Shown: in pieces, positions 2,954-47,807 of the stretch
How the letters are laid out: every line of letters begins with the position of its first letter
Numbering within the stretch: the stretch's first letter is position 1
Source of the DNA: an uncultured Lachnospiraceae bacterium
GTDB lineage: Bacteria; Bacillota; Clostridia; Lachnospirales; Lachnospiraceae
DNA length: 64,000 nt
NCBI GenBank assembly: GCA_900314085.1
Contig: OMTX01000138.1
Span: forward strand, 340-64,339
Reading direction: 5' to 3'
Position numbers and translations under genes: made by a program
The notes under the pieces: generated by a model
What the model was told of the DNA's origin: nothing
Databases searched by the model: none
The model's input: only the letters and a program-made list of their open reading frames with translations

Positions 2954-4747
2954 TCAGGCATTAATGGAAATGGTGTTCCCCTGTTCCTTCATGATCTGTG
3001 CCGCCAGCCGCTCATCCTCCGAGAGATTGGAAAGACCTTCCTGATCAAGGGATCGCATGTCGATATTCCCGATCCGGCCGTTACCCCGCCGGCCTTCTTC
3101 TTCGTTGCGGAAAGTACCGCTGTTTCCGCCTTCGGCTCCGGCCATGTCCGCTGCCTGCCCCTCTTCGAGATTCCGCTCGAACTGGTGGGCATCGGCTGTG
3201 ACGGTGACCTCATTTACCTTGATGCCCTGGGCCTCGAGGTTCTGTTTCAGGATGCCCATCTGGGTTTCCATGGCCGTGCGGACATTTTCATTTTCGAGGG
3301 TGACATGGGCGTTGACCTGCCCCTCTTCCGAGGTCACCCGGATGGACATCTTGCCGAGATTTTCCGGATTGAGCTGCAGTTCCATCGTCGTAGCCCTCTC
3401 CGTGATGGCTGTCCGGATGCCGGTAGCCATCTGGTTCAGGATGTCCCGGGTGTCGATATTCTGCTGCGTAGTGTAGGATACAGGAACCTCAGGCGTTTCC
3501 GCCCGCATCTCTGCAACGGGCGTCTGTGGCTGCTGGTTCATGTTCAGGGCATTCTGGTGGTTCTCGTTTGCCCCGGTCTGGGCGCCCTGGTTCTGAGTAT
3601 TCTGGGAAGCAGAGGCCTTTACGGTATTGTCCGCTCCCATATCCTTTGTCGCAGTGAAGCTGTCGTCAGAAAGGTCGGCAAGGTTGTCCGTTGTGTCAGT
3701 CGTCTTTTCTTCTGCCGCAGGAGCCGTCAATTCGACGGTTTCTTCCGCAGAAACCGTGTCCTCTGTAAGGGCTGCTGCATCATCGGTTTCAGCAGCGGCC
3801 GTTTCCTCAGCCGCCTGTGTATCCGCAGTATCCGAAAGAATCTCCGTCATCTCATCAGAGGATGCCGCTGCTGCCGGATCTGCTGTAGCAGCAGTTCCTG
3901 CATTGTCAGAGGCAGCCGGCGTTATATCAGATGCTGCCGTATGCGTCTGAGCCGTATTCACATCAGCTGCCTGCTTTCCGGCAGTTTCATCCGTATCGGA
4001 AAGGTTGAGATTGATTTCTTCCGACCCGTCCGCAGGCGTCAGGTCCGAAATGTCGATGCCGTTTTCCTTTGCCTCTGTCAGCATGCCGTCGATAGCGGTA
4101 AGCTGCTGCATGGAAAGGCCGGTCGTCTGAAAAAGATCCTGAGCCAGGTCGTTGATGGAATTTTTGATGTCGGAAAAATTCTGCAGAGAAAGGAGGCTGG
4201 CCGCGTCGAAGTCGTTTCCGAGAAGCTGCATCATGAGCTTGGCCAGGGCATTCGTGTCCGTGAGGTCCAGGTAGGAAAGACCGAGATCTTCCATGGCTGC
4301 CTCTATATCCTCGTCCGTGACGCCGAGTTCCTTTTTCAGGACGTCGTTGATGCCTGTCTTGAAGTCATCGAGAGCTTTTGAGACTCTGCCCAGGTCGTCC
4401 TTTGAAAGCGTCACCGGGCTGTCAGTTCCCGCTGCATTCGAAGCGTTCGCGGAAGACGTATTTTTTATAATATTCTGATTGGAAAGAGAAACGCCCTGCC
4501 CCTTCGCACTAATGGAGAAGACCTCCGCCCGGACGGTCCGGGAAGAAGCTGTCACGGAAACGGTACTGCCCGCCTGCTTTGCGCTGATTTCCTGTACAGA
4601 CGTGGAAATCTTCGCAGTCATCACCATCGTGAAGTCAGCGTTTTCGTCGTCCGGTGCCTTGCTGCGCAGGGGCTTATAATTCGTGCCTGCCGCAGGCATA
4701 TTCATAGAGGGAGTATTCAGAGTTGAAAGGATATCTGTTCCGGTCAT
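2954..4747 (-). CDS. fliK: Flagellar hook-length control protein FliK
   Basis: 597 aa. Low-complexity Ala/Thr/Asp-rich centre. The C-terminal ELQLNPENLGKMSIRVTSEEGQVNAHVTLENENVRTAMETQMGILKQNLEAQGIKVNEVTV matches the FliK (Flg_hook) C-terminal domain. Occupies the syntenic slot before flgD. Confidence 0.8.
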   Translation of the reverse strand: MTGTDILSTLNTPSMNMPAAGTNYKPLRSKAPDDENADFTMVMTAKISTSVQEISAKQAGSTVSVTASSRTVRAEVFSISAKGQGVSLSNQNIIKNTSSANASNAAGTDSPVTLSKDDLGRVSKALDDFKTGINDVLKKELGVTDEDIEAAMEDLGLSYLDLTDTNALAKLMMQLLGNDFDAASLLSLQNFSDIKNSINDLAQDLFQTTGLSMQQLTAIDGMLTEAKENGIDISDLTPADGSEEINLNLSDTDETAGKQAADVNTAQTHTAASDITPAASDNAGTAATADPAAAASSDEMTEILSDTADTQAAEETAAAETDDAAALTEDTVSAEETVELTAPAAEEKTTDTTDNLADLSDDSFTATKDMGADNTVKASASQNTQNQGAQTGANENHQNALNMNQQPQTPVAEMRAETPEVPVSYTTQQNIDTRDILNQMATGIRTAITERATTMELQLNPENLGKMSIRVTSEEGQVNAHVTLENENVRTAMETQMGILKQNLEAQGIKVNEVTVTADAHQFERNLEEGQAADMAGAEGGNSGTFRNEEEGRRGNGRIGNIDMRSLDQEGLSNLSEDERLAAQIMKEQGNTISINA

Positions 4748-4913
4748 GGCAAAAGCCTTTCAAAGTTGCCGTTCTGCCATCCCTTGCAGATTCCCCGCAG
4801 TCCTTTGCGGGAGTGATATGAGGAAGCCTGTTTCACCTTTCTCTGGAATTTTTATCGGACACCCGGTCAAAAGACTTTAGGATGATCCGGAAATTTCTCT
4901 GCCGTCTTTTTTT

Positions 4914-4950
4914 GCAAAAAACGCTGCCCCTGAAAAATCAGAGGCAGCGC
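4914..4950 (-). terminator. Intrinsic-terminator-like hairpin inside the flagellar operon (after the ylxF-like gene, before fliK)
   Basis: Minus strand reads gcgctgcctctg-atttttc-aggggcagcg followed by ttttttgc. The stem is 10-12 bp and GC-rich with a U-run. Confidence 0.4.
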
Positions 4951-4954
4951 AAAT

Positions 4955-5782
4955 TCACTTGGGATTCATGATTTCCGTCACCTTGGCCGCTGTATCGGCG
5001 TTCATCGCCCCGAGAATGGCGCCGCGGTTGCTTGCCGACATGGCGTTCAGAATTTTTGCGACCAGGTTCAGATTGTCCGTCATCGTGTCAAAGATGCCGG
5101 CCGCTTGGCTCGCCTTCATCGAAGAATAGGTCTTCGCATAGTCCTGGATCTTCGAATCCGCCTCGTCCTGCTGGACGACCTGCTTGTAGATGGCCTCGGC
5201 GTTGTCCGGCTCAATCTCCTCATAGTACTGGCGGTAAGCGGACGTATCCGGGGCATTGTCCGAGTAGACGATGTCCTCGTAGAACTGCTGCTTCTCCTGC
5301 TCGAACTTGGCCTCGTTCTGCTTGTAGGTCTGCAGTTCCGCCGCCTGGGCCTGAAGATCCGCCAGCGTCGCGGCATCTGTCGTTGACTGGTCCTGGGCTG
5401 CTTTGAGCTGGGCCTCGAGTTCCTTGATTCGGGCGACGGCCTGGTCCATGGTGGCAAACTGATAGGCGGAGTCCTCCTGGGCATAGTCGTCCTTCACATC
5501 AGGAAGGATCTTGTTCAGATAGGGGACGTTCTTCAGAATGGGATACATGACGGTGGACCCGAATCCGCCCACATCGGTTTTTATGAGTAATGCAAAGATC
5601 GCAAGCCAGATGATGACAACAAGGATGGCAACAAGAGCCACGACAAGGCCGCCGCCCTTCTTGTCCTCGTCTTCATCAGGCTCCTCGTCCTTACCCTTCT
5701 TTCCCTTGGTATCCTTCTTGCCCTTGGCGTCAGCTTTCGCCTTTTCGTCTTTTGCGGGCTTCTTTGCTTCTTCGTCTGCCAT
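4955..5782 (-). CDS. Flagellar-operon protein with MgtE_N-like C-terminal domain (YlxF/FlbB/MotE-like)
   Basis: 275 aa. Lys/Glu-rich N-terminus, one TM helix (LVVALVAILVVIIWLAIFALLI), a coiled coil, and a C-terminus AAGIFDTMTDNLNLVAKILNAMSASNRGAILGAMNADTAAKVTEIM. Same slot as B. subtilis ylxF between fliJ and fliK. Confidence 0.6.
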   Translation of the reverse strand: MADEEAKKPAKDEKAKADAKGKKDTKGKKGKDEEPDEDEDKKGGGLVVALVAILVVIIWLAIFALLIKTDVGGFGSTVMYPILKNVPYLNKILPDVKDDYAQEDSAYQFATMDQAVARIKELEAQLKAAQDQSTTDAATLADLQAQAAELQTYKQNEAKFEQEKQQFYEDIVYSDNAPDTSAYRQYYEEIEPDNAEAIYKQVVQQDEADSKIQDYAKTYSSMKASQAAGIFDTMTDNLNLVAKILNAMSASNRGAILGAMNADTAAKVTEIMNPK

Positions 5783-28261: not shown

Positions 28262-29578
28262 CTAGCCTCTCTCTCCGATCGTCGTTTCCCATGTCTTCTT
28301 GGTCTGGGGGGAAATCTCCCCGAAGCCCAGATCCCGGATGACGATCTTCACCTTCTGGTCAGATACGGGAACCGCTTCAATCCGAAGCCGTGTCGTCCGG
28401 TTTTCCCTTTTCGGCATGTCGTCAAGGGGAATCGTGAAGACCTCTCCCGTCCGTTCGTCCGGCTTCTGCAGCCAGCATTCGATTTCCGGAGAGCCGTCCA
28501 GTATGACCTCGCACTCTCCGTGGGCCTCGTACCAGCTGTCTCCTGCCGTAAGCAAGGTCACGAAACCCATTTCATTCCTGTCGAGAACCTTGAGGGAAAT
28601 ATTGACCTTGAGCTCATTGTCTCCGATGTAGACGAATGGCCAGTCGATATCCCCTCTCTCCACGATTCCTGCATAGCAGGCACCCTTGGAATAGAGGTTT
28701 TTCCCCATGAAAACCCGGCTCCCCTTCAGCATCCGCTGCAGGGAAATATTCATCCAGTTTCCCTCGAAGCCGCTTCCAATCAGGTAGACCGCGGAAATGG
28801 TATGGTCTTCGTAAATGCCGGAAAGGATATTGTCAAAGCAGAGGTCCCGGTTTTCCAGCATTTCCCCGTCCCCCGCACTCTCAAGGCTTACGGTTTCCGG
28901 CGTCGTGCTGCGGTTTCTCGTCAGCAGGCAGTGCATGATCCGTCCCCCGTCGTAGTCAAAAAGGAGGACGTCGCTCCGGTAAAGCTCGGGCTTCTGAGAC
29001 AGGGCATAATAATAAAAGCTCTCCGTCCTGTCTATGAGAAGCAGACAGTCCTGCTCGATGGAAAGGCGGCGGCAGACGGAAGAAAAGGTCTCGTGCAGAG
29101 CCTTTCCCGTATGCTCGGTACAGATGACCAGGCGGGAAAGAGGGCGTTTCTGAAAACCGATCAGGGGCAGCGTCAGAAGCTTCTTGAGGAAAACGGCCAG
29201 CAGGTCGCGGGCATCGTATTCCTCGGAATCCAGGTAGACCTTTTCCTCCCGCTCCGCCCTCTCCAGAAAGTCCGTGGCAGGAAGGGCCATGGAAAGGCGG
29301 ATCTGAGACAGGGCGTCGCTGCCGAAGAACCACTGGCCCAGCCCCTTCTTCTTCGCAAGAACCGTCGGAATCTGAAAGGAGTCCTCCCCCATGACTGTGC
29401 TGATGGTCTCCGGTTCCTCCATGCCCTCTACATAGTAGCTGACAAAAGTATATTCTCTTCCAATGTCGATGCCGACGATGACACCGTCTCTTTCATCTTC
29501 CATAGCAATCATTCCTGCTTTCCGCAGGCTGGGCAAAAAATGTGAAAAAGGGAACCGGGACGTCCGAAACCGGATCAC
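28262..29578 (-). CDS. Degenerate Hsp70/actin-fold ATPase-like protein with beta-sandwich C-terminal domain
   Basis: VIVGIDIGREYT (phosphate-1-like), VLLFDYDGGRI (phosphate-2-like), AVYLIGSGFEG (adenosine-motif-like), then a beta-rich C-terminus (KVNISLKVLDRNE...RLRIEAVPVSDQKVKIVIRDLGFG). The GTG start at 29578 overlaps the upstream stop (GTGA). Alternative ATG starts at 29512 and 29503. Confidence 0.6.
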   Translation of the reverse strand: MIRFRTSRFPFSHFLPSLRKAGMIAMEDERDGVIVGIDIGREYTFVSYYVEGMEEPETISTVMGEDSFQIPTVLAKKKGLGQWFFGSDALSQIRLSMALPATDFLERAEREEKVYLDSEEYDARDLLAVFLKKLLTLPLIGFQKRPLSRLVICTEHTGKALHETFSSVCRRLSIEQDCLLLIDRTESFYYYALSQKPELYRSDVLLFDYDGGRIMHCLLTRNRSTTPETVSLESAGDGEMLENRDLCFDNILSGIYEDHTISAVYLIGSGFEGNWMNISLQRMLKGSRVFMGKNLYSKGACYAGIVERGDIDWPFVYIGDNELKVNISLKVLDRNEMGFVTLLTAGDSWYEAHGECEVILDGSPEIECWLQKPDERTGEVFTIPLDDMPKRENRTTRLRIEAVPVSDQKVKIVIRDLGFGEISPQTKKTWETTIGERG

Positions 29579-32500
29579 CTCAGCGAGTAGAGTTCCCGGA
29601 CTGCCGAATCCAGGGCGGAAAAGCGCTTCATTCCGGAAAGCGTCTGCCGGTCATCCGAGAAATAGAGACCGGACCGCATGCGGTTGATGAGGCTGTAGCG
29701 GCTCTCCTGGCCTCCCGGAAATTCATCTGTACAGGAAATTTCGCCGGAATAGAGGACTGTCTCCGGTTCATCCCTGAGGCAGACCTCGTAGGAAACTTTG
29801 TCCCCAAAAAAGAGGACGAACTGGCAGACATAAATGCTGGGATACATCTCCACCATTTCCGCGTGAATTTCCCCCCTGTCCCCATTTCGAAGGCAGATGT
29901 CGATGCGCTGCCCCTCTTCCCCCTCGTAGGTGATGAAATACTTGTCATAGAGGTGAAAGCGGATCCGAAGGTCATCCGGGCACTGCCTGTAGAAGTCGAA
30001 GTAGAGATTCTTCCGGATGGCTTCCGACAGAAGCTTTGTCAGAAGCGCCTTTTCCTTCCCGGAAAGCGCATCCTTCCTGCAGAGAAATGAAAGCAGGCCG
30101 ACGAGACAGCTTTCATTCAGCTTCTCTCCCCTGTCATAGTAGGCCGTGAGGTGGCTGAAGACAGACGCCGGAACATCTTCCCGGTGCTTCAGGTAGGCAT
30201 GAGCCCAGTAGGTAATCCAGGCTTCCGCAATCATACGATTGGGATGGGCGGACAGGTAGTCCTCGAATATAGTTTCTGCTTCGTCCGGGAATTTTTCCGC
30301 ATAGAGCATTTCCGTCACGGTCCTCTCGGCCAGGTCGGCCGTCGGCAGGGACAGGGCATTCATGTGCTTCCAGATTTCCGCCATGACCTTTTCCGGTCCT
30401 ACATAGAAGTCTCCGAGGTAGGAAATCGTCGTCTCATTGTCCAGATACTGGCTCATGAGATACGCCGCCATGGATATGAGGAAATCATCCGGATTTGAGG
30501 GATTTTCCCCGATCTCATGTGTCACCAGGGAAAGCAGAGACCGGCCGGTCGCCCCAAGTCCGATATAGGACCGGAGCAGGGAATAGGCAGCCTCCGGATT
30601 TCCACCGATGGAAAAGAGGTCGATGCAGTAGCAGATGGTTCGCGTGTCGAGGCAGGAATAGTCTGTCTCCCTCAGGAGGTAGCGTTCAAAAACATCCTCC
30701 CGGAGGACTCTCCGCAGATATTGAATGAATAATGTAAAGCGCTCCGTTTTGTAGCAATAGCGGATATCCGGGCAGTCTAAGAAGGCGCCGACCGTATCGG
30801 CTGCATCCGGCCCGATTTCCTTTTCCGTTGTAATGTCATTCAGTTCATAGCGGAAATAGGGAAGAAGGTCTTTGGCTTCCTTCGTAAGCTTCGGCAGAAT
30901 CCGCGAGAGGTCCATCATCTCCCGCGTAAGGATGAAACCCTTTTCAGCTACATAGAGCCCGCCGTCGAGTTCGAGAAAGACACGGAAAGTCTTACAGGAT
31001 ATGGGGGCAAAAGCGGTATTTCGTATGACGGGAACATATACGGGCTCCTCCGAATCGTCCGTCACAATGACCGCCCTGCGCACATCCCCGATGCTGCAGG
31101 ATATCTGCACGGGAACGAGCAGGTCGGCAAAGGAAGCCGCCACGTCACTGTCAATGATTCCCCGGTCCAGCACATCCTGGTAAATGACCGCCAGATTGTC
31201 GTCGAGCCGCCGATGCCTCATCATCTCCAGGGCAAAGGTTTCAACGGTCTTCTTTGTCTCTTCATATACCGAAGGGCACTCCGCCTTGTGGGAAATCATA
31301 GAGGCGTAGACAAAAGCCTTTCGGTCAAAGCTGATGGTATTCGTATAGCCGAAGTAGCGGAGTACGTCCTCCGGCAGCGGCCTGGCATAATCCTCAGGAA
31401 GGCTCATCACATAGGCTTCGTAAAGCCCCGTCAGGGAAAGCCCGCTCTTGACGGCCAGGGCATACCAGGGCAGGGAGTCAGGCCCGTAGATGCTGTTTCT
31501 GAGCAGGTAGCGGAGGGCAGCGTCCAGAAGTTCCGGGGAAGGATTTGCCCCGTAGCACTTCCGGACAAGGAAGAAGACCTTTTTGTCAAAGACCTTCTCC
31601 CTGCCAAGCAGGGTGGCAAGCCGCATGGCGATATTCCCTGTCAGACGGTCCTTCCGGGCTCCCCAGGTCAGAATGCGGAGGGTAAAGGGATCGAATTCTT
31701 TGATGAGCAGTGGGTCCTTTTTCAAGACAGACAAGGCTTCCACATATAGAAACGGAGACGAGCAGCCGGCCATGACGAACTGCCGGATGTCGGAAAGCTC
31801 CTTCATTCCGTTTGACACATAGTCTTCCCGCAGGAAAAGGAGAAGCCAGAAGATGCGCACATCTCCCTCCCGCTCGCGGAAAATGCCCTCGACCTCTGCC
31901 GTCAGCCGGTCCACATAGGTCTTGTCCCGTTCGAGCAGGGTACAGAGGTAGAGGAGGTAGGCCCATTCAAAGGACTTGCGGTCGGGGATGTCCGCCCGCA
32001 GGTCTTCTACCATGGACAGGGCTTCTGCCTTCTTGCCATCCACGATGAGGACCTGGGTCCTGATCAGCTTTAAGAGCAGCTCCCTGTCCTCAGTACAAGC
32101 CCCCTCCATCGTATCAAGAACGGCAGCCGTTTTTCCCAGCCATTCATCCGCAGAGAACTTTCCGAAACGGTAATTGAGATAGCCTTCCGCCAGGGAAACT
32201 GAGCCCCTCAGGAGAATCCTCTCCGTATCATTCCGGTCATGGCCTGCGGACTTTCGGGTACACAGAAGTGTCAGCGTCTTCTCGTCATTGGTTCCGGAAA
32301 AGGTAATGCGGCAGTAGTTCTTTCCCGCATGCATGCGCTCCGGGTGGAGGAAAAAGCTGTACCTGCAGACACTGCCCACAAAGAAATCATTGGTCAGATC
32401 CGTCTGCCCCAGGGTAACGAAGTCACTATCACAGGAAACCCGGATTCTGAGATAGCCCCACGCGGACCGGGAAATTTCAATGGTCTTTCTCTCCGTCTCC

Positions 32501-33096
32501 TCTCCGACGGCATACGTCAGGGATGTCTCGGAAATTTCGAAGTGGACTCTTGCCTTAAGTCCCGCCCCCGTCAGAAATTCCTCCATATTGTCCGGCGTTT
32601 TCGGGAATAGGCGGTAGCCTCTGTAGAGAAGTTCAAACTCCTTCCCGCACCGTCCGGCGAAAGACGCAAAGGCATCCGAGGAAAAGAGCTCCATCGCAGC
32701 CGAAGGCTTTTTCCGGTAAAGATCTGCAAAGTCTTCGGGTGTTCGGATTTCTTCCCCTTCCGCAAGCAGTTTTTTGGGAACATAGGTAATCCGATAGGGA
32801 ATATCAAAGGTCTTTCCCTGGATGAGAATATAGAAATCCCCGGAAAGGACATCGCCGGCCCGGGCGCCTGCCATCGCGGCGGAAAAGCGGATAGCAATCT
32901 CAACTCCTTCAAAGGAAGGGTTCAAAACTGCAACATAGGGATTGGAAGAGAAAGCCATCCCACGGAGAACCGTGCCGTCAGTGGAAGAAAAGGAAAAAGT
33001 CCCGGAAAAAGGCTCCCGTTCCACGGCCGTGAGATCGATGGACTCCGTATCGAATTGTATGTGCTCCGGTGCCGGATCAAACCGGTCCTCGGACAT
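29575..33096 (-). CDS. Giant hypothetical protein (~1170 aa): N-terminal beta domains, ~750-aa alpha-helical repeat body, C-terminal beta domain
   Basis: Uninterrupted ORF with coding-like composition. ATG at 33096 is preferred over TTG at 33117. No nucleotide-binding or catalytic motif recognised. May correspond to a DUF5717-type family, but that is from memory and unverified. Confidence 0.65.
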   Translation of the reverse strand: MSEDRFDPAPEHIQFDTESIDLTAVEREPFSGTFSFSSTDGTVLRGMAFSSNPYVAVLNPSFEGVEIAIRFSAAMAGARAGDVLSGDFYILIQGKTFDIPYRITYVPKKLLAEGEEIRTPEDFADLYRKKPSAAMELFSSDAFASFAGRCGKEFELLYRGYRLFPKTPDNMEEFLTGAGLKARVHFEISETSLTYAVGEETERKTIEISRSAWGYLRIRVSCDSDFVTLGQTDLTNDFFVGSVCRYSFFLHPERMHAGKNYCRITFSGTNDEKTLTLLCTRKSAGHDRNDTERILLRGSVSLAEGYLNYRFGKFSADEWLGKTAAVLDTMEGACTEDRELLLKLIRTQVLIVDGKKAEALSMVEDLRADIPDRKSFEWAYLLYLCTLLERDKTYVDRLTAEVEGIFREREGDVRIFWLLLFLREDYVSNGMKELSDIRQFVMAGCSSPFLYVEALSVLKKDPLLIKEFDPFTLRILTWGARKDRLTGNIAMRLATLLGREKVFDKKVFFLVRKCYGANPSPELLDAALRYLLRNSIYGPDSLPWYALAVKSGLSLTGLYEAYVMSLPEDYARPLPEDVLRYFGYTNTISFDRKAFVYASMISHKAECPSVYEETKKTVETFALEMMRHRRLDDNLAVIYQDVLDRGIIDSDVAASFADLLVPVQISCSIGDVRRAVIVTDDSEEPVYVPVIRNTAFAPISCKTFRVFLELDGGLYVAEKGFILTREMMDLSRILPKLTKEAKDLLPYFRYELNDITTEKEIGPDAADTVGAFLDCPDIRYCYKTERFTLFIQYLRRVLREDVFERYLLRETDYSCLDTRTICYCIDLFSIGGNPEAAYSLLRSYIGLGATGRSLLSLVTHEIGENPSNPDDFLISMAAYLMSQYLDNETTISYLGDFYVGPEKVMAEIWKHMNALSLPTADLAERTVTEMLYAEKFPDEAETIFEDYLSAHPNRMIAEAWITYWAHAYLKHREDVPASVFSHLTAYYDRGEKLNESCLVGLLSFLCRKDALSGKEKALLTKLLSEAIRKNLYFDFYRQCPDDLRIRFHLYDKYFITYEGEEGQRIDICLRNGDRGEIHAEMVEMYPSIYVCQFVLFFGDKVSYEVCLRDEPETVLYSGEISCTDEFPGGQESRYSLINRMRSGLYFSDDRQTLSGMKRFSALDSAVRELYSLR

Positions 33097-33222
33097 CCGC
33101 CAGATCTTCCGTCTCAAGGGAACGCGCTCCTAAGTGAATATGCTATAATGAAAAAAGGCTATAATAATAAAGATTATAACTTATTTCTAAGGAAATTGGA
33201 AAACTTTTGGAGGACCAGGAAT

Positions 33223-34397: not shown

Positions 34398-35054
34398 CTA
34401 GTACAGCATCGCTCCGCCTTCGAAGTCGAAGTAGGAATTGAAATCGAAGTACACGACCTCCCCCGTCTCCTTGTCGCAGGTTCCTGCGTGAAGAAGCCCG
34501 CCCGGGGTTCCGGCTGCCTCATTCGGCGGGACAATCCGGAAAAGGAAGGTATAATTCTTCCCTGTCATCTGCAAGGTCTTGTCCAGCTTGACACAGAGCC
34601 GCTTCCACCCTGTCATGGGGAAGGAGACGCCGCAGAGCTTGTCGCAGGCCTTTTCAAACTGGGCCTGCACGGACTTTTCCTGACCTGTCCAGAAAGCGTC
34701 AGCTGCGTGAATTTCCTCCGGCGTGGAGATATTCCACTTGAACCTGGTCTTCCAGACCGTAATCAGGCCATCGCGATTCTCCGTGAAGAGGGGACGGCAG
34801 ACATAGTCGATGGAGCCGGGCACGATGAAGGAGTGCTGCCCGTCGTTGTCTCCCTTGGCAGCGACAATCGTTCCGCAGCAGTCCCGGACAAATTCGTCGT
34901 CCGTATCCGCCCCTTTCCTGTAGTTGAAAAGGATGAAGCCGTCCGCAGCCTTCACATCGATGTCCCGGGCATCGAAATCCTCCCGGATCTTTTCGATTGT
35001 AAGGTCGGAGCTTTCCGACAGGGCATTCAGATAGTCTTTGAGTACTGCAGCCAT
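34398..35054 (-). CDS. Hypothetical protein (218 aa)
   Basis: ATG 35054 with AAAGGGGG SD 7 nt upstream. Coding-like composition. No confident family assignment. Confidence 0.6.
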   Translation of the reverse strand: MAAVLKDYLNALSESSDLTIEKIREDFDARDIDVKAADGFILFNYRKGADTDDEFVRDCCGTIVAAKGDNDGQHSFIVPGSIDYVCRPLFTENRDGLITVWKTRFKWNISTPEEIHAADAFWTGQEKSVQAQFEKACDKLCGVSFPMTGWKRLCVKLDKTLQMTGKNYTFLFRIVPPNEAAGTPGGLLHAGTCDKETGEVVYFDFNSYFDFEGGAMLY

Positions 35055-35074
35055 AGCGCTACCCCCTTTTCCCA

Positions 35075-35083
35075 AGTATAGCA
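35075..35083 (-). promoter_or_regulatory. Candidate extended -10 promoter (TGcTATACT) for the 218-aa gene
   Basis: Minus strand reads tgctatact, about 20 nt upstream of ATG 35054. Confidence 0.3.
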
Positions 35084-35131
35084 TAAATATGCACGCAATG
35101 GGGAGAATTCACAGTCCTCCTTATTTGTAGT

Positions 35132-35967
35132 ACGGCCCTTTCACCGGCGGCTCCCTGCCTTGTTCTCAGAAAGGCCGTGCGGCAGCTCACTCCCTCAGGC
35201 CCTCCTCCCCGAATTATAAGGCACCTTGCAACAGCCTTCGAAAATGTGACTCAGCAAGAGCCGGCAGATCGGATCCCGCGGAAAAGAAGGGTACCCCGCC
35301 GGTCGCCAGGCGGTCTACGGACCGCTCGCGGCGCCCGTCAGGGCACGCCTTCTTTTTCCTGCTTACTCTTACATCAGGCCAGGCTCTTATGTACTCACAT
35401 TTTCTACAGGCGGGTTTGGCTTCTCAACGAATTTCCGTGACGGACCTTCAGGAGTATCGTGCCTTCGGCTTCCACGGAACCCTTGCTGACCGGCAGGAAC
35501 GCGCCGGGCTCCGGAACCTTTCGGGTGGAGACCATCCTTTCGTTTCACCGCAGTTTGAATATACATTCAGCAAAGTGTCCGGTGCTGCAGCCGGCGCGAG
35601 CCTGCCGATCAGCAAGGGTAGTATGGAAGCCGCAGGAATCCCCCTCGGAGGAGACCGGCCGGAAACCGCTCCTGCGGCCAAACTGCTCCGACACGCACGG
35701 CTTCGCAGGGCAGACGGTGTGGAAATCATACGGAAGCAGAGAAAAGTCCCTCATCGGACGCCGCGAGCGGTCCGTAGACCGCCAGGGCGACCGGGAGGGG
35801 CTTTTTTGCTGCGAACGAAATCCGTACGCACTGCCCGGAGAAGGCGTGAGCATACGGAGCATCAATTGCACCAAAGAGAAAATACAGTCAGAAGGCCGAT
35901 GGCCGAGGGGGTTCCGATACCGGCCTTTCTGAGAGGAAGGCAGACGAGCCGCCGGAGAAAGGGCCGT
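35132..35967. repeat. Giant imperfect inverted repeat (two ~415-nt arms symmetric about ~35549), non-coding
   Basis: Near-perfect complementary blocks at 35132-35177/35921-35967, 35299-35346/35746-35794 and 35465-35507/35591-35633. The intervening segments are of matching length with weaker complementarity. No RBS-preceded ORF. Confidence 0.85.
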
Positions 35968-35972
35968 GCCGC

Positions 35973-36002
35973 AAAAAAAGAGGGCTGTGTTGTTCACAGC
36001 CC
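35973..36002 (-). terminator. Rho-independent terminator of the nfnAB operon
   Basis: Minus strand reads gggctgtg-aacaa-cacagccc, then tc, then ttttttt. Confidence 0.75.
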
Positions 36003-36021
36003 CCTGATCCGATTTTCAGAT

Positions 36022-37404
36022 TTACTTATTTTCAAAATACTGCATGATGCCCTTTGCCGCAGCCTTTCCGGCGCCCATGGCAAGGATTACCGTGGCGGCT
36101 CCGGTGACAGCGTCGCCGCCGGCATAGACGCCCTCGCGGGTGGTCTTTCCAAATTCGTCCTCGGATACGATACAGCCCCGCTTGTTGGTCTCGAGCCCCT
36201 TCGTCGTCGAAGAGATGAGCGGGTTGGGCGAAGTGCCGAGCGCCATGATGACGGTGTCGCAGGGGATCTCGTACTCGGAGCCGGGTACCTCGACAGGACG
36301 GCGGCGGCCGGATTCATCGGGCTCGCCAAGCTCCATTTTGATGACGCGGATGCCTCTGACATCCCCGTTCTCATCCGTCAGGATTTCCGTCGGATTCTGC
36401 AGGAGGTCAAAGATGATGCCCTCTTCCTCCGCATGGTGCACCTCCTCGGCTCTGGCCGGAAGCTCTGCCATGGACCGGCGGTAGACGATATGGACTTCTG
36501 CCCCGAGGCGGAGGGCCGTCCGGGCAGAATCCATAGCGACATTTCCGCCGCCGACCACAACGACCTTTTTCCCGTGGTGGATGGGGGTAGGCCCGTCCTT
36601 ATAGGCCTTCATGAGATTGTTTCTCGTCAGATATTCGTTCGCAGAAAAGACGCCGTTGGCCTGCTCACCGGGAATTCCCATGAAACGGGGAAGGCCGGCG
36701 CCGGAGCCGATGAAGACTGCCTCAAAGCCGCGGCTTTGCATCAGGTCGTCAATGGTGACGGACTTTCCGACAACGACGTCGGTGTCGATCGTGACGCCCA
36801 GGTTTTTGACATTCTCCACTTCCTTGGCTACGACATCATCTTTCGGCAGACGGAATTCAGGAATGCCGTAGACAAGGACGCCGCCGGCCTTGTGCAGGGC
36901 CTCGAAAATCGTGACGTCATATCCTGCCTTGGCAAGATCCCCTGCGCAGGTCAGACCGGAAGGGCCGGCGCCGATGACCGCTACCTTGTGGCCGTTCTTT
37001 TTGCTTTCATTCTTCGGAGCGATACCGTTCTTCCGTGCCCAGTCAGCGACAAAGCGCTCGAGCTTTCCGATGGCAACGGCTTCTCCCTTGATTCCCCTGA
37101 CGCAGACACCTTCGCACTGGGTTTCCTGAGGGCAGACACGGCCGCAGACCGCGGGAAGGGCGGAAGACTCGGAGATGATTTCATAAGCCCTTTCAAAATT
37201 TCTTGCCTTCACTTCCTGAATGAAGGCGGGGATATTGATGGAGACAGGGCACCCGCCAACGCAGCGGGGTACTTTGCAGTTAAGACAGCGGGAGGCCTCT
37301 TCTACTGCTTCTTCCTCGGTATAACCGAGACACACCTCATCGAAATTTGTCGCGCGAACCTTGGGATCCTGCTCGGCAACCTTCGTTCTTACATTCATAT
37401 CCAT
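36022..37404 (-). CDS. nfnB: GltD-family NADPH oxidoreductase (NfnB-type large subunit)
   Basis: 460 aa. N-terminal Cys clusters (CLNCKVPRCVGGCPV; CGRVCPQETQCEGVC) and Rossmann motifs GAGPSGLTCA and VVGGGNVAMD. Overlaps the upstream PyrK-like subunit by 1 nt (TAATG). Confidence 0.85.
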   Translation of the reverse strand: MDMNVRTKVAEQDPKVRATNFDEVCLGYTEEEAVEEASRCLNCKVPRCVGGCPVSINIPAFIQEVKARNFERAYEIISESSALPAVCGRVCPQETQCEGVCVRGIKGEAVAIGKLERFVADWARKNGIAPKNESKKNGHKVAVIGAGPSGLTCAGDLAKAGYDVTIFEALHKAGGVLVYGIPEFRLPKDDVVAKEVENVKNLGVTIDTDVVVGKSVTIDDLMQSRGFEAVFIGSGAGLPRFMGIPGEQANGVFSANEYLTRNNLMKAYKDGPTPIHHGKKVVVVGGGNVAMDSARTALRLGAEVHIVYRRSMAELPARAEEVHHAEEEGIIFDLLQNPTEILTDENGDVRGIRVIKMELGEPDESGRRRPVEVPGSEYEIPCDTVIMALGTSPNPLISSTTKGLETNKRGCIVSEDEFGKTTREGVYAGGDAVTGAATVILAMGAGKAAAKGIMQYFENK

Positions 37405-45893: not shown

Positions 45894-47600
45894 TCAATTC
45901 CGAGCAGGCAGCTTGTAGGAACTCTTCAGGGAAACAATCCGGTTGAATACGGGCTCTCCGGGCTTCGAGTCCTTGGGATCAACGGCAAAAAATCCGTTCC
46001 GGACGAACTGGAAACGGTCGTACGCCTTCGCATCCTTCAGGGAGGGCTCAACATAGGCATTCATCACGGTTTCCGAATTCGGGTTCAGGTTTAAGTCCCC
46101 GTTTTCATCGTAGACGCCCTTCTCCTCATCAACGATATTCTCATAGAGGCGGGCCTTCACCGGGATGGCCGTCCCCGCATTCACCCAGTGGATTGTGCCT
46201 TTGACCTTGCGGCCGTCGGGAGAATCTCCGCCCTTTGTAGCGGGATCATAGGTGCAGTGGATCAGTGTCACATTCCCGTCCGCATCCTTTTCGCAGGACG
46301 TGCAGGTCACATAGTAGGCGTTCATGAGGCGGACCTCATTGCCGGGATAGAGGCGGCGGTACTTGGCCGGAGGCACCTCCATGAAGTCCTCGCGCTCGAT
46401 ATAGAGCTCGCGTGAGAAGGGAACTGTCCGTGAGCCCAAAACCGGATTTTCCACATTATTCTGAACGGGAAGCTCCTCCGTCTGTCCCTCGGGGTAGTTG
46501 TCAATCACGAGCTTCACGGGATCGAGAACCGCAAAGATGCGGGATGCCTGTACTTTCAGGTCTTCCCGGATGCAGTACTCGAGCATGGCATAGTCCGATA
46601 CCGCATTCGACTTCGCAATGCCGGAAAGCTCGACAAACTTCCGGATGGACTCCGGCGTGAAGCCGCGGCGGCGAAGGCCTGCAATCGAGACAATGCGGGG
46701 ATCGTCCCAGCCGTCCACCATGCCGTTCTCCACCAGCTTTTTGATGTAGCGCTTGCCGGTGACGATATTTTTCAGGTACATCTTGGCAAACTCGATCTGC
46801 CTGGGCGGCTTCTCCCAGTCCGTATTGTTCACCACCCAGTCATAGAGAGGCCGGTGGTCTTCAAACTCCAGGGTGCAGAGGGAATGGGTGATGCCTTCAA
46901 TCGCGTCCTCAATCGGGTGGGCGAAGTCATACATGGGGTAGATGCACCACTTGTCGCCGGTCCGGGCGTGGGAAATATGGGCGACGCGGTACAATATGGG
47001 ATCGCGCATATTGATATTGGGAGAAGCCATGTCGATCTTCGCCCTGAGGACCATCTCTCCGTCTGCGTATTTGCCGGCCTTCATGTCGGAGAAAATCTGC
47101 AGGGATTCTTCCATCGGCCGCTCGCGGTTCGGATCATTCGTACCGGGTTCCGTCAGGGTGCCTCTCGTTTCCCGGATCTGATCCGCGGAGAGATCCGAAG
47201 CGTAAGCCAGGCCCTTTTTGATGAGGGTTACGGCGCACTCGTACATTTTGTCGAAGTAGTCGGAAGCATAATAAATCTTGTCCCCGAAATCAGCGCCCAG
47301 CCACTTGACGTCCTCGACGATGGAGTCCATGAACTCGGATTTTTCCTTCGTCGGGTTCGTGTCGTCGAAACGCATATGGAAAGTGCCGTTGTATTCCTTT
47401 GCGATTCCGGAATTCAGGATGATGGACTTAGCGTGGCCGATATGCAGGAAGCCGTTGGGCTCCGGCGGGAAGCGGGTAACGACCTCCGAATAGCGGCCGC
47501 TCTCGAGATCCGCATCGATTGCTTCCTCAATGAAATTGCGGCTCTTCTTCTCTGAGTCCTCTGCTGCTTCTGTCGCGCTTGTTGTTGCTTCTTCAGACAT
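45894..47600 (-). CDS. glnS: Glutamine--tRNA ligase
   Basis: 568 aa. FPPEPNGFLHIGHAKS (HIGH) and a GlnRS-type beta-barrel C-terminus. Confidence 0.95.
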   Translation of the reverse strand: MSEEATTSATEAAEDSEKKSRNFIEEAIDADLESGRYSEVVTRFPPEPNGFLHIGHAKSIILNSGIAKEYNGTFHMRFDDTNPTKEKSEFMDSIVEDVKWLGADFGDKIYYASDYFDKMYECAVTLIKKGLAYASDLSADQIRETRGTLTEPGTNDPNRERPMEESLQIFSDMKAGKYADGEMVLRAKIDMASPNINMRDPILYRVAHISHARTGDKWCIYPMYDFAHPIEDAIEGITHSLCTLEFEDHRPLYDWVVNNTDWEKPPRQIEFAKMYLKNIVTGKRYIKKLVENGMVDGWDDPRIVSIAGLRRRGFTPESIRKFVELSGIAKSNAVSDYAMLEYCIREDLKVQASRIFAVLDPVKLVIDNYPEGQTEELPVQNNVENPVLGSRTVPFSRELYIEREDFMEVPPAKYRRLYPGNEVRLMNAYYVTCTSCEKDADGNVTLIHCTYDPATKGGDSPDGRKVKGTIHWVNAGTAIPVKARLYENIVDEEKGVYDENGDLNLNPNSETVMNAYVEPSLKDAKAYDRFQFVRNGFFAVDPKDSKPGEPVFNRIVSLKSSYKLPARN

Positions 47601-47630: not shown

Positions 47631-47807
47631 ATTGTATAACCATCGGATTGCTCCGTCGCTGCGCGACTCTCGCAATCCTCCCCTCAAGCTCACGCTTTAC
47701 TGCTGTATACACAGCATCGCGTTCGCTTGAGGGGGCGGGCCATTAACGAATGTCCATTGAAAAACAGGTTTTCCAATGTCCATTCGTTTTGGCCCTGGTT
47801 ATACAAT
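47631..47807 (-). other. Compact multi-hairpin (four-way-junction-like) element between the rhomboid-like gene and glnS
   Basis: A 12-bp closing stem (47631-47642/47796-47807) encloses three abutting hairpins at 47645-47678, 47680-47734 and 47738-47794, with linkers of 0-3 nt. Confidence 0.5.

Follow-up and report, generated by a model that had tools for sequence, protein, structure and literature searches.

The window analysed here, a stretch of 64,000 nt from contig OMTX01000138.1 of an uncultured Lachnospiraceae bacterium to which all coordinates refer, contains a long imperfect palindrome between nfnB, the gene for the beta subunit of an NADPH-dependent oxidoreductase (36022-37404, minus strand; Pfam domains Fer4_20 and Pyr_redox_2), and a 218-aa orphan gene (34398-35054, minus strand). 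Both genes lie outside the palindrome and flank it, and the region raises the question of what such a structure is and how it came to stand between them. An earlier note on this DNA had considered a rod-like hairpin RNA, two paralogous structured small RNA genes or a structure acting at the DNA level. The reading that we favour, and hold to be probable rather than certain, is that the region is an intact copy, about 912 bp long (35100-36011, with ends uncertain by a few nt), of a species-specific, non-coding and dispersed foldback repeat, a non-autonomous mobile element that resembles miniature inverted-repeat transposable elements (MITEs) and REPINs. Among the possibilities raised earlier the DNA-level one is best supported, specifically in the form of a dispersed foldback repeat. 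The family is most likely a new and unusually large one of the MITE or REPIN kind and not a new giant RNA; to our knowledge, no dispersed hairpin repeats of 0.4-0.9 kb have been described in Firmicutes.

The element is carried nearly unchanged by seven metagenome assemblies of the same species. In RUG151 (L011), the closest other species found, with an NfnB that is 95% identical, nfnB is followed by a terminator and then, about 100 nt on, by the orphan gene, and four further lineages with orphan-gene homologues of 85-72% identity show the same element-free order, with 100-235 nt from nfnB to the orphan gene. As the element is missing between these genes in five sister lineages, it is an insertion; this empty-site comparison was made at the window locus only. 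Between the window and the element-free relatives, identity at four-fold degenerate sites is just 50-57%, so that the insertion may be old. At the same site the sister lineages have an ordinary terminator of 30-50 nt. The extended -10 promoter of the orphan gene, TGCTATACT with its hexamer at 35080-35075, is conserved in relatives and falls outside the element, and the palindrome does sit between the nfnB terminator and this promoter, as had been pointed out before. Across the 64 kb it is the sole inverted repeat of at least 30 nt within 1.5 kb, and its suspected richness in GC was borne out (0.60, as compared to 0.32-0.59 in six other spacers), with values of 0.80-0.82 in its B blocks.

Judged by its sequence, the element in the window is two units joined head to head, a right unit that we term R-type (35509-36011, plus strand), which the unit profile finds with nhmmer at E = 2e-129 and which matches the loci L129, L130 and L133 described below, and an L-type left unit (35100-35513, minus strand; E = 6e-88 with the same profile), a diverged member of the family. 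Three colinear inverted blocks lie where the earlier note had placed them. Block A, the left terminal inverted repeat (35110-35177), is 84% complementary to block A', the right terminal inverted repeat (35921-35989), whose 69 nt pair with it. The cores of B and B' (35299-35337 and 35755-35794) agree at 92.5% over 40 nt. Block C (35462-35507), the inner end of the left unit and a diverged A-type end, is 83% complementary over 46 nt to block C' (35591-35636), the inner end of the right unit, with which it pairs. The inverted arms are beyond chance, with a score of 168 for the global alignment of the left arm to the reverse-complemented right arm against -61 +/- 16 for shuffles, and the 896-nt stretch folds with z = -18 on the plus strand and z = -13 on the minus strand as RNA and with z = -16.7 as DNA, again relative to shuffles. 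Two claims about the remainder of the arms had to be given up. The segments between the blocks, thought to pair partially with each other, do so at chance level only (z about 0), and instead of two fully homologous arms of some 415 nt we find that these segments pair within their own arm, so that the shape is an outer stem enclosing three long hairpins. The symmetry also reaches farther than had been assumed: it extends to about 35100 on one side and 36011 on the other, and the 'nfnB terminator' is part of it.

Both inner palindromes are exactly 284 nt long. The left one, an arm-specific stem around B (35178-35461), has halves with 69% identity (Ls1 against the reverse complement of Ls2, z = 6.1), folds with z = -4.1 on the plus and -5.7 on the minus strand and is without homology to the right-arm spacers; in the right one, around B' (35637-35920), the identity is 66% (Rs1 against the reverse complement of Rs2, z = 12.1) and folding reaches z = -6.2 and -6.4, respectively. 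At the tip of the left unit foldback stands the extended B hairpin (35279-35351), with a TACG loop at 35317-35320 and an A-run and a T-run on its flanks, and at the tip of the right one the extended B' hairpin (35740-35808), whose core is followed by CTTTTTTG on the plus strand. The pattern of GGGG..C and a T-run, read outward from the centre in both arms, is present as described earlier. The centre piece (35508-35590) belongs to the R-type copy and is common to L129 (91-94%) and in part to L130; it holds the mini-palindrome TGAAT-ATAC-ATTCA that had been noticed at the apex and that we confirm at 35556-35569.

At the outer ends the element carries further hairpins. The right terminal hairpin, AGGGGGCTGTG-AACAA-CACAGCCCTCT followed by T7 (35972-36005, minus strand), is element-borne, and a terminator scan found a stem of 11 pairs with T7 after it at 36005-35979 of the minus strand, 16 nt past the nfnB stop; it is the predicted intrinsic (Rho-independent) terminator of nfnB. 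A variant of this hairpin with a T-rich run forms the left end (35100-35126, plus strand) and can be aligned to the other ends; its minus-strand reading is GGAGGA-CTGTGAA-TTCTCC, and it faces transcription arriving from the left and resembles the right-end hairpin of L129, GGAGA-CTGCTGCTGCA-ATCTCC. Similarity to other copies stops at this terminal hairpin on the left and at CGGAT(G)CAGGGGG, a sequence common to the left end of L133, on the right.

Other copies of the element were found with an index-free phmmer search that used its spurious 157-aa plus-strand open reading frame (ORF) as query. The four 'proteins' returned come from the translation of related sequences at four further intergenic loci, of which three belong to the metagenome assembly with the window locus and one to the assembly containing strain L001. 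The repeat is multicopy, and the family comprises five unlinked loci: the window, L129, L130, L131/L132 and L133. L129 (6075-6529) matches the right arm only (35509-35963), with 93.6% over 455 nt. L130 contains an R-type unit that is 90.4% identical to the right unit (5020-5453) and, at 4912-4966, an inverted A block with the first 9 nt of the spacer, 98% identical to the left end of the window element. L133 is a second head-to-head dimer, with 88.8% (4693-5109) and 73.8% identity to the right arm, and L131/L132 is a single foldback with A-type ends, in which L131 has a true A block at the position equivalent to C, aligning to C'. The inner-boundary motif TCCGGAACC is found in all four loci. 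With a profile of the unit, nhmmer matches were confined to the loci of this species among 115 loci (969 kb) of which 80 are nfnB loci from other Clostridia and Bacteroidia. The element had no blastn match in phage and plasmid collections, and five motif scans of IMG/VR, exact or degenerate, yielded nothing beyond chance 19-mers; a scan of JGI metagenomes with a 20-mer from block B gave 13 matches, all of them chance matches of 20-22 nt in contigs of 60-77% GC. Protein-word searches returned only its own cluster for the 150-aa minus-strand ORF and nothing for the 87-aa ORF of the left arm.

Seven units could be aligned, and they share one order: centre piece, C', stem half, B hairpin, stem half, A', A-run and terminal hairpin. 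The basic unit is a foldback of about 410-500 nt that is bounded by inverted repeats of the A or C type, with C' again a diverged A-type end. In each unit the sequence forms an imperfect palindrome around the strongly conserved, GC-rich B hairpin, its complementarity amounting to 67-73% (z = 9-28). The A' columns GGCCTTTCTGA..AGGCAG..GAGCCGCCGG are invariant, and all 10 aligned ends consist of a hairpin and a T-run followed by (A)TGCGG(T/C)ACGGCCCTTTC.CCGGCGGCTC. The hairpin of the 'nfnB terminator' and the preceding CGGAT(G)CA recur at the left end of L133, homologous variants of the terminal hairpin with compensatory changes are present at L130 and L133b, and at the right end of L130 the hairpin is changed on both sides, from CTGTG/CACAG to CTGAG/CTCAG. 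As the terminal hairpin recurs at other copies, it belongs to the repeat. L129 and L130 look like internal-deletion derivatives of the same composite dimer of an L-type and an R-type unit, the junction of L129 lying at a CCGG microhomology and that of L130 leading from around position 10 of the spacer into roughly the final 10 nt of C. If this is so, the dimer and not the single unit seems to be what was copied, and the whole dimer would be the replicating unit.

All copies stand just downstream of the 3' end of some gene, and in four cases the end hairpin with its T-run faces the incoming gene: nfnB in the window, a 4HBT gene at L129, an NFACT gene at L130 and an ECF gene at L133. Units occur in both orientations relative to their neighbouring genes, and truncated or deleted copies persist.

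The aligned units allowed us to ask whether the foldback is conserved as a structure. In the RNAalifold foldback of the seven units 91.5% of the cells are paired, compared to 39-46% with slid partners, and 28 pairs are changed on both sides, compared to 10.1 +/- 2.3 in shuffles (none of 500 reached 28) and 4-14 when slid; for these numbers it has to be kept in mind that the family structure was derived from the same alignment that was used for the count. The B hairpin (helix 13) stands out: of its 25 pairs, 8 are changed on both sides, and 94.9% of its cells are paired. The hairpin architecture is maintained while the stem sequences drift, and this explains why the arms in the window share only the blocks A, B and C. 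The earlier suggestion of selection rather than a recent duplication is supported, as far as a non-neutral upkeep of the structure goes, by these family-wide compensatory changes, which preserve the foldback.

The element is non-coding. The ORFs inside it are rich in arginine, serine and proline, have no Pfam hit and have no relatives except for translations of other copies. Gene callers do place ORFs of 150-208 aa in the repeat copies, as at 35545-35997 (minus strand) and 35459-35932 (plus strand), and the entries P0001, P0009 and P0011-P0014 form a small spurious 'hypothetical protein' family in public protein collections.

How would such a repeat move? A scan of 45 ORFs in the window and of the neighbourhood of the other copies found no transposase, RAYT, Y1_Tnp or recombinase, and we infer mobility from the distribution of the copies. 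An enzyme acting in trans that recognises the folded hairpin DNA would move the element, and movement of this kind would explain why structure and not stem sequence is conserved. With a hairpin and an inward T-run at each outer end, transcription that enters from either side meets an intrinsic terminator. The right terminal hairpin may now terminate nfnAB, and the element as a whole could serve as a barrier to transcription in both directions that stands before the orphan gene's own promoter; its practical effect at the window locus is probably modest.

Several points speak against a mobile element of this kind, the missing enzyme being one of them. A size of 0.4-0.9 kb and the nested architecture are far above what is typical of bacterial MITEs and REPINs. 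No direct repeat in the manner of a target-site duplication was found in the flanks of the window copy, L129, L130 and L133, where the termini are uncertain by a few nt. Just five loci are known, all of them from metagenome assemblies, and that they share one genome is deduced from their co-occurrence in the same samples. Among the strains L001, L115 and L121 we counted 14 single nucleotide polymorphisms (SNPs), which mostly break predicted pairs without compensation and are not depleted within the blocks; such uncompensated changes within the species indicate that the current constraint on the stems is weak. Finally, the compensatory evolution fits equally well to a structured RNA or to a templated homogenisation of the arms by template switching. 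Template switching creates, extends and homogenises the arms of inverted repeats and can mimic selection (PMC8604942, PMC13100816, PMC8794818).

Some further observations concern the strains. Short-read contigs from Logan (at least eight runs; L007-L010 and L119-L123) end at 35161/35164, 35478 and 35938, inside A, C and A', and the ends at 35478 and 35938 fall 2 nt short of the L001 SNPs at 35480 and 35936. The latter SNP, G>C, restores a base pair in the A:A' stem. In L121 (SRR33964909; window-equivalent 35055-35478) eight SNPs are packed into 35340-35474, while the 285 nt beside them and the orphan gene have none; the cluster looks like a recombination mosaic or an exchange with another repeat copy.

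One alternative is a multicopy family of large structured non-coding RNAs in which each unit or dimer is transcribed and folds into a branched hairpin, and we regard it as unlikely. The strong family-wide covariation and the very low folding energies would suit an RNA, as would the high GC content of an intergenic region, the C(UACG)G-type tetraloop of the B hairpin in units read from the A end inward toward the C end, and weak promoter-like sites on the minus strand at 35427-35399 and with a perfect TATAAT at 35218-35213. Yet the promoter-like sites in the element are few, weak and not conserved among the copies, a strong terminator stands immediately upstream on the sole strand that has such a site, and the inward-facing terminator at each end would block the entry of transcription. 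The two strands fold equally well, with alifold energies of -103 and -98 kcal/mol, and neither is enriched in G-U pairs (63 versus 54 cells). Helices of 40-70 bp with long Watson-Crick runs look like inverted repeats of DNA, and as RNA they would be substrates of RNase III. The occurrence of units in both orientations, the persistence of truncated and deleted copies and the strain SNPs that break pairs also argue against an RNA.

Known RNA families give no support to this alternative either, in agreement with the earlier note, which had matched the region to no class it considered. At the gathering threshold Rfam 15 reports for the whole window only a Clostridiales-1 RNA at 47635-47803, and a permissive scan of 34900-36200 at E < 10 gave two chance hits (E = 3.6 and 8.9). 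The covariance models of ROOL, GOLLD, OLE, HEARO and raiA do not match, nor do the Rfam 15 models for group II intron domains, 6S, SRP, RNase P and tmRNA, and ARAGORN found no tRNA or tmRNA. With no Rfam match, no convincing promoter and no G-U strand bias RNA genes are not supported, and of the two paralogous small RNA genes only the paralogy survives, in two paralogous units of which the right one also occurs alone at L129. Three more specific identities were tried and rejected. Group IIC introns insert after terminators; a match to domain V/VI is absent, and the palindromic layout would be unexpected for such an intron. A 'conserved tip on a variable hairpin' in the manner of SRP or 6S RNA found no matching model, and for ends of the Tn3 type, with a GGGG start and a 5-bp duplication, the duplication is absent (GCAAT versus TGATC).

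An equally doubtful alternative is a module of the BIME or REP type that the host maintains for its function. Hairpins resembling terminators would form an array here, spread through recombination or template switching and not by transposition; the supposed function, to which the same doubt applies, would be to terminate or insulate transcription or to stabilise 3' ends. That every copy lies just past the 3' end of a gene, and that in the window, L129, L130 and L133 the end hairpin and T-run face the converging gene, speaks for such a module. B and B' resemble bidirectional terminators, the succession of A-run, hairpin and T-run is kept in all units, and template switching offers a known route to create, extend and homogenise the arms. 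The ordinary 30-50-nt terminators of the sister lineages weigh on the other side, as 900 bp are hard to justify on function alone, and the recurrence of the same composite dimer at unlinked loci needs a copying mechanism anyway.

The two remaining explanations fare far worse. A unique inverted duplication in situ, arising by a fold-back or template-switch accident at the nfnB terminator and decaying neutrally, would account for an inverted repeat that takes in the 3' half and the T-run of the terminator, for stem mismatches that are mostly of transversion type and for the uncompensated strain SNPs, but it is refuted as the sole explanation by the facts that the right arm occurs alone at another locus with 94% identity, that the family counts at least five loci, that the terminal hairpin is part of the repeat and that the spacers of the two arms are not homologous. 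The copying of a native nfnB terminator to the left end by such a fold-back is overturned by the other copies, which carry the terminal hairpin as well. An inverton, with A and A' as recombination sites around a 743-bp segment that carries a promoter of the orphan gene, could draw on the position of this inverted-repeat-flanked segment directly upstream of the gene, on the perfect TATAAT at 35218-35213 that faces it and on the Logan contigs that break inside A and A', but is very unlikely, since all seven spanning assemblies (7/7) show one orientation, the breaks coincide with L001 SNP positions (35480, 35936) and are explained by strain variation, identity between the arms reaches only 84%, a conserved promoter of the orphan gene is retained beyond the repeat, no recombinase lies nearby and copies elsewhere stand between convergent genes.

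The foldback repeat that we favour would change how such palindromes are approached. The tempting lead to a giant RNA of the ROOL or GOLLD kind is removed, and similar palindromes can be checked by way of other copies in the same genome. There are practical consequences as well, in that short-read contigs tend to stop inside the element and the family seeds spurious proteins in collections. There is a small chance that the family goes further. Mobile elements of hairpin DNA would then gain a new class, a 'giant REPIN' of about 0.9 kb in Firmicutes that a domesticated or unknown enzyme spreads in the form of a folded single strand and that can, by its own bidirectional terminators, settle behind any gene; or else the family would be a new large RNA in multiple copies, its units being expressed as long, branched hairpin RNAs that serve some role in the cell. 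The mobilising enzyme, if found, would widen the range of hairpin-DNA transposition systems.

The surroundings of the element show some features of their own. The 218-aa orphan protein (relatives P0002-P0008) has no Pfam domain and is found, at 50-85% identity, in a small group of rumen Lachnospiraceae, in which its gene always stands directly after nfnAB; the protein may be functionally linked to NfnAB. The TATAAT in the left unit (35213-35218, minus strand) points toward this gene, with a weak -35 element TCGAAG and a spacer of 17 nt, and the element might add a second promoter to it. The block of nfnAB, orphan gene and aminotransferase gene adjoins the gene for a DUF5717 protein of 1180 aa (29575-33117, minus strand), a conserved neighbour (L105/L109/L112) that is followed in relatives by a DUF5716 gene. 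Past nfnB in the Oscillospiraceae assembly MGBC143865 (L071, 3725-5260) we found AT-rich tandem units of 136-138 bp with TTGACC-type motifs, which recur inverted 1.1-1.4 kb away and flank a 224-aa ORF; they were considered as relatives of the element and rejected as unrelated tandem repeats. The Clostridiales-1 RNA (RF01699; 47635-47803, minus strand) is full-length, with 93.3 bits where the gathering score is 48, and is found immediately upstream of a gene resembling those for glutaminyl- and glutamyl-tRNA synthetases (45894-47600).

To which known system does the element come closest? With the large RNAs ROOL, GOLLD, OLE, HEARO and raiA it shares a length of several hundred nt, a high GC content, a high degree of structure and an intergenic position, and ROOL also originates from rumen samples (PMC12286853). 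Those RNAs, however, are multi-junction and pseudoknotted structures, not palindromic dimers with helices of 40-70 bp. A likeness of another sort exists to the Foldback (FB) elements and other foldback transposons with long terminal inverted repeats, which are nearly all inverted repeat, form long snap-back hairpins and vary in size between copies with internal deletions. These belong to another domain of life and have no homology to the element, and in the eukaryotic FB elements the arms are made of tandem subrepeats.

The bacterial MITEs stand nearer. They include the Correia elements of Neisseria, ERIC/IRU and RUP, typically measure 100-400 bp and have a clear target-site duplication and an identifiable parent insertion sequence (IS). 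In common with them the element is non-coding and non-autonomous, has terminal inverted repeats and single-strand hairpins, is dispersed between genes with insertion polymorphism and can supply promoters or terminators to neighbouring genes; of the features that define a MITE, a short non-coding sequence (912 bp), terminal inverted repeats, dispersed copies and, at the window locus, presence/absence polymorphism are found here. It differs from them in that neither a duplication nor a parent IS was detected, in that its conserved part includes the centre (B) and not the ends alone, and in that two units joined head to head, with a terminator built into each outer end, make up the intact form.

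REPINs are extragenic, species-restricted and multicopy, often at the 3' ends of genes, and have conserved ends and a spacer that is constrained in length and in its capacity to form a hairpin, with compensatory changes; they replicate as doublets, and singlets are what remains after decay (PMC3116915). Our element is likewise an inverted doublet hairpin with conserved ends in which spacer length (284 nt) and pairing are kept by compensation, and it too is extragenic, non-coding, species-restricted and multicopy. In contrast, REPINs measure about 70-110+ nt, are built from REPs of 20-40 nt and occur in hundreds of copies beside a RAYT gene, whereas the element has 0.4-0.9 kb, is nested, is known in at least five copies from a Firmicute and has no RAYT among the window ORFs scanned. 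Membership among the REPINs fails on size and copy number, but by analogy they would be its nearest counterpart in logic, and in this uncultured rumen Lachnospiraceae the repeat family appears to behave like a tenfold enlarged REPIN with terminators at both ends.

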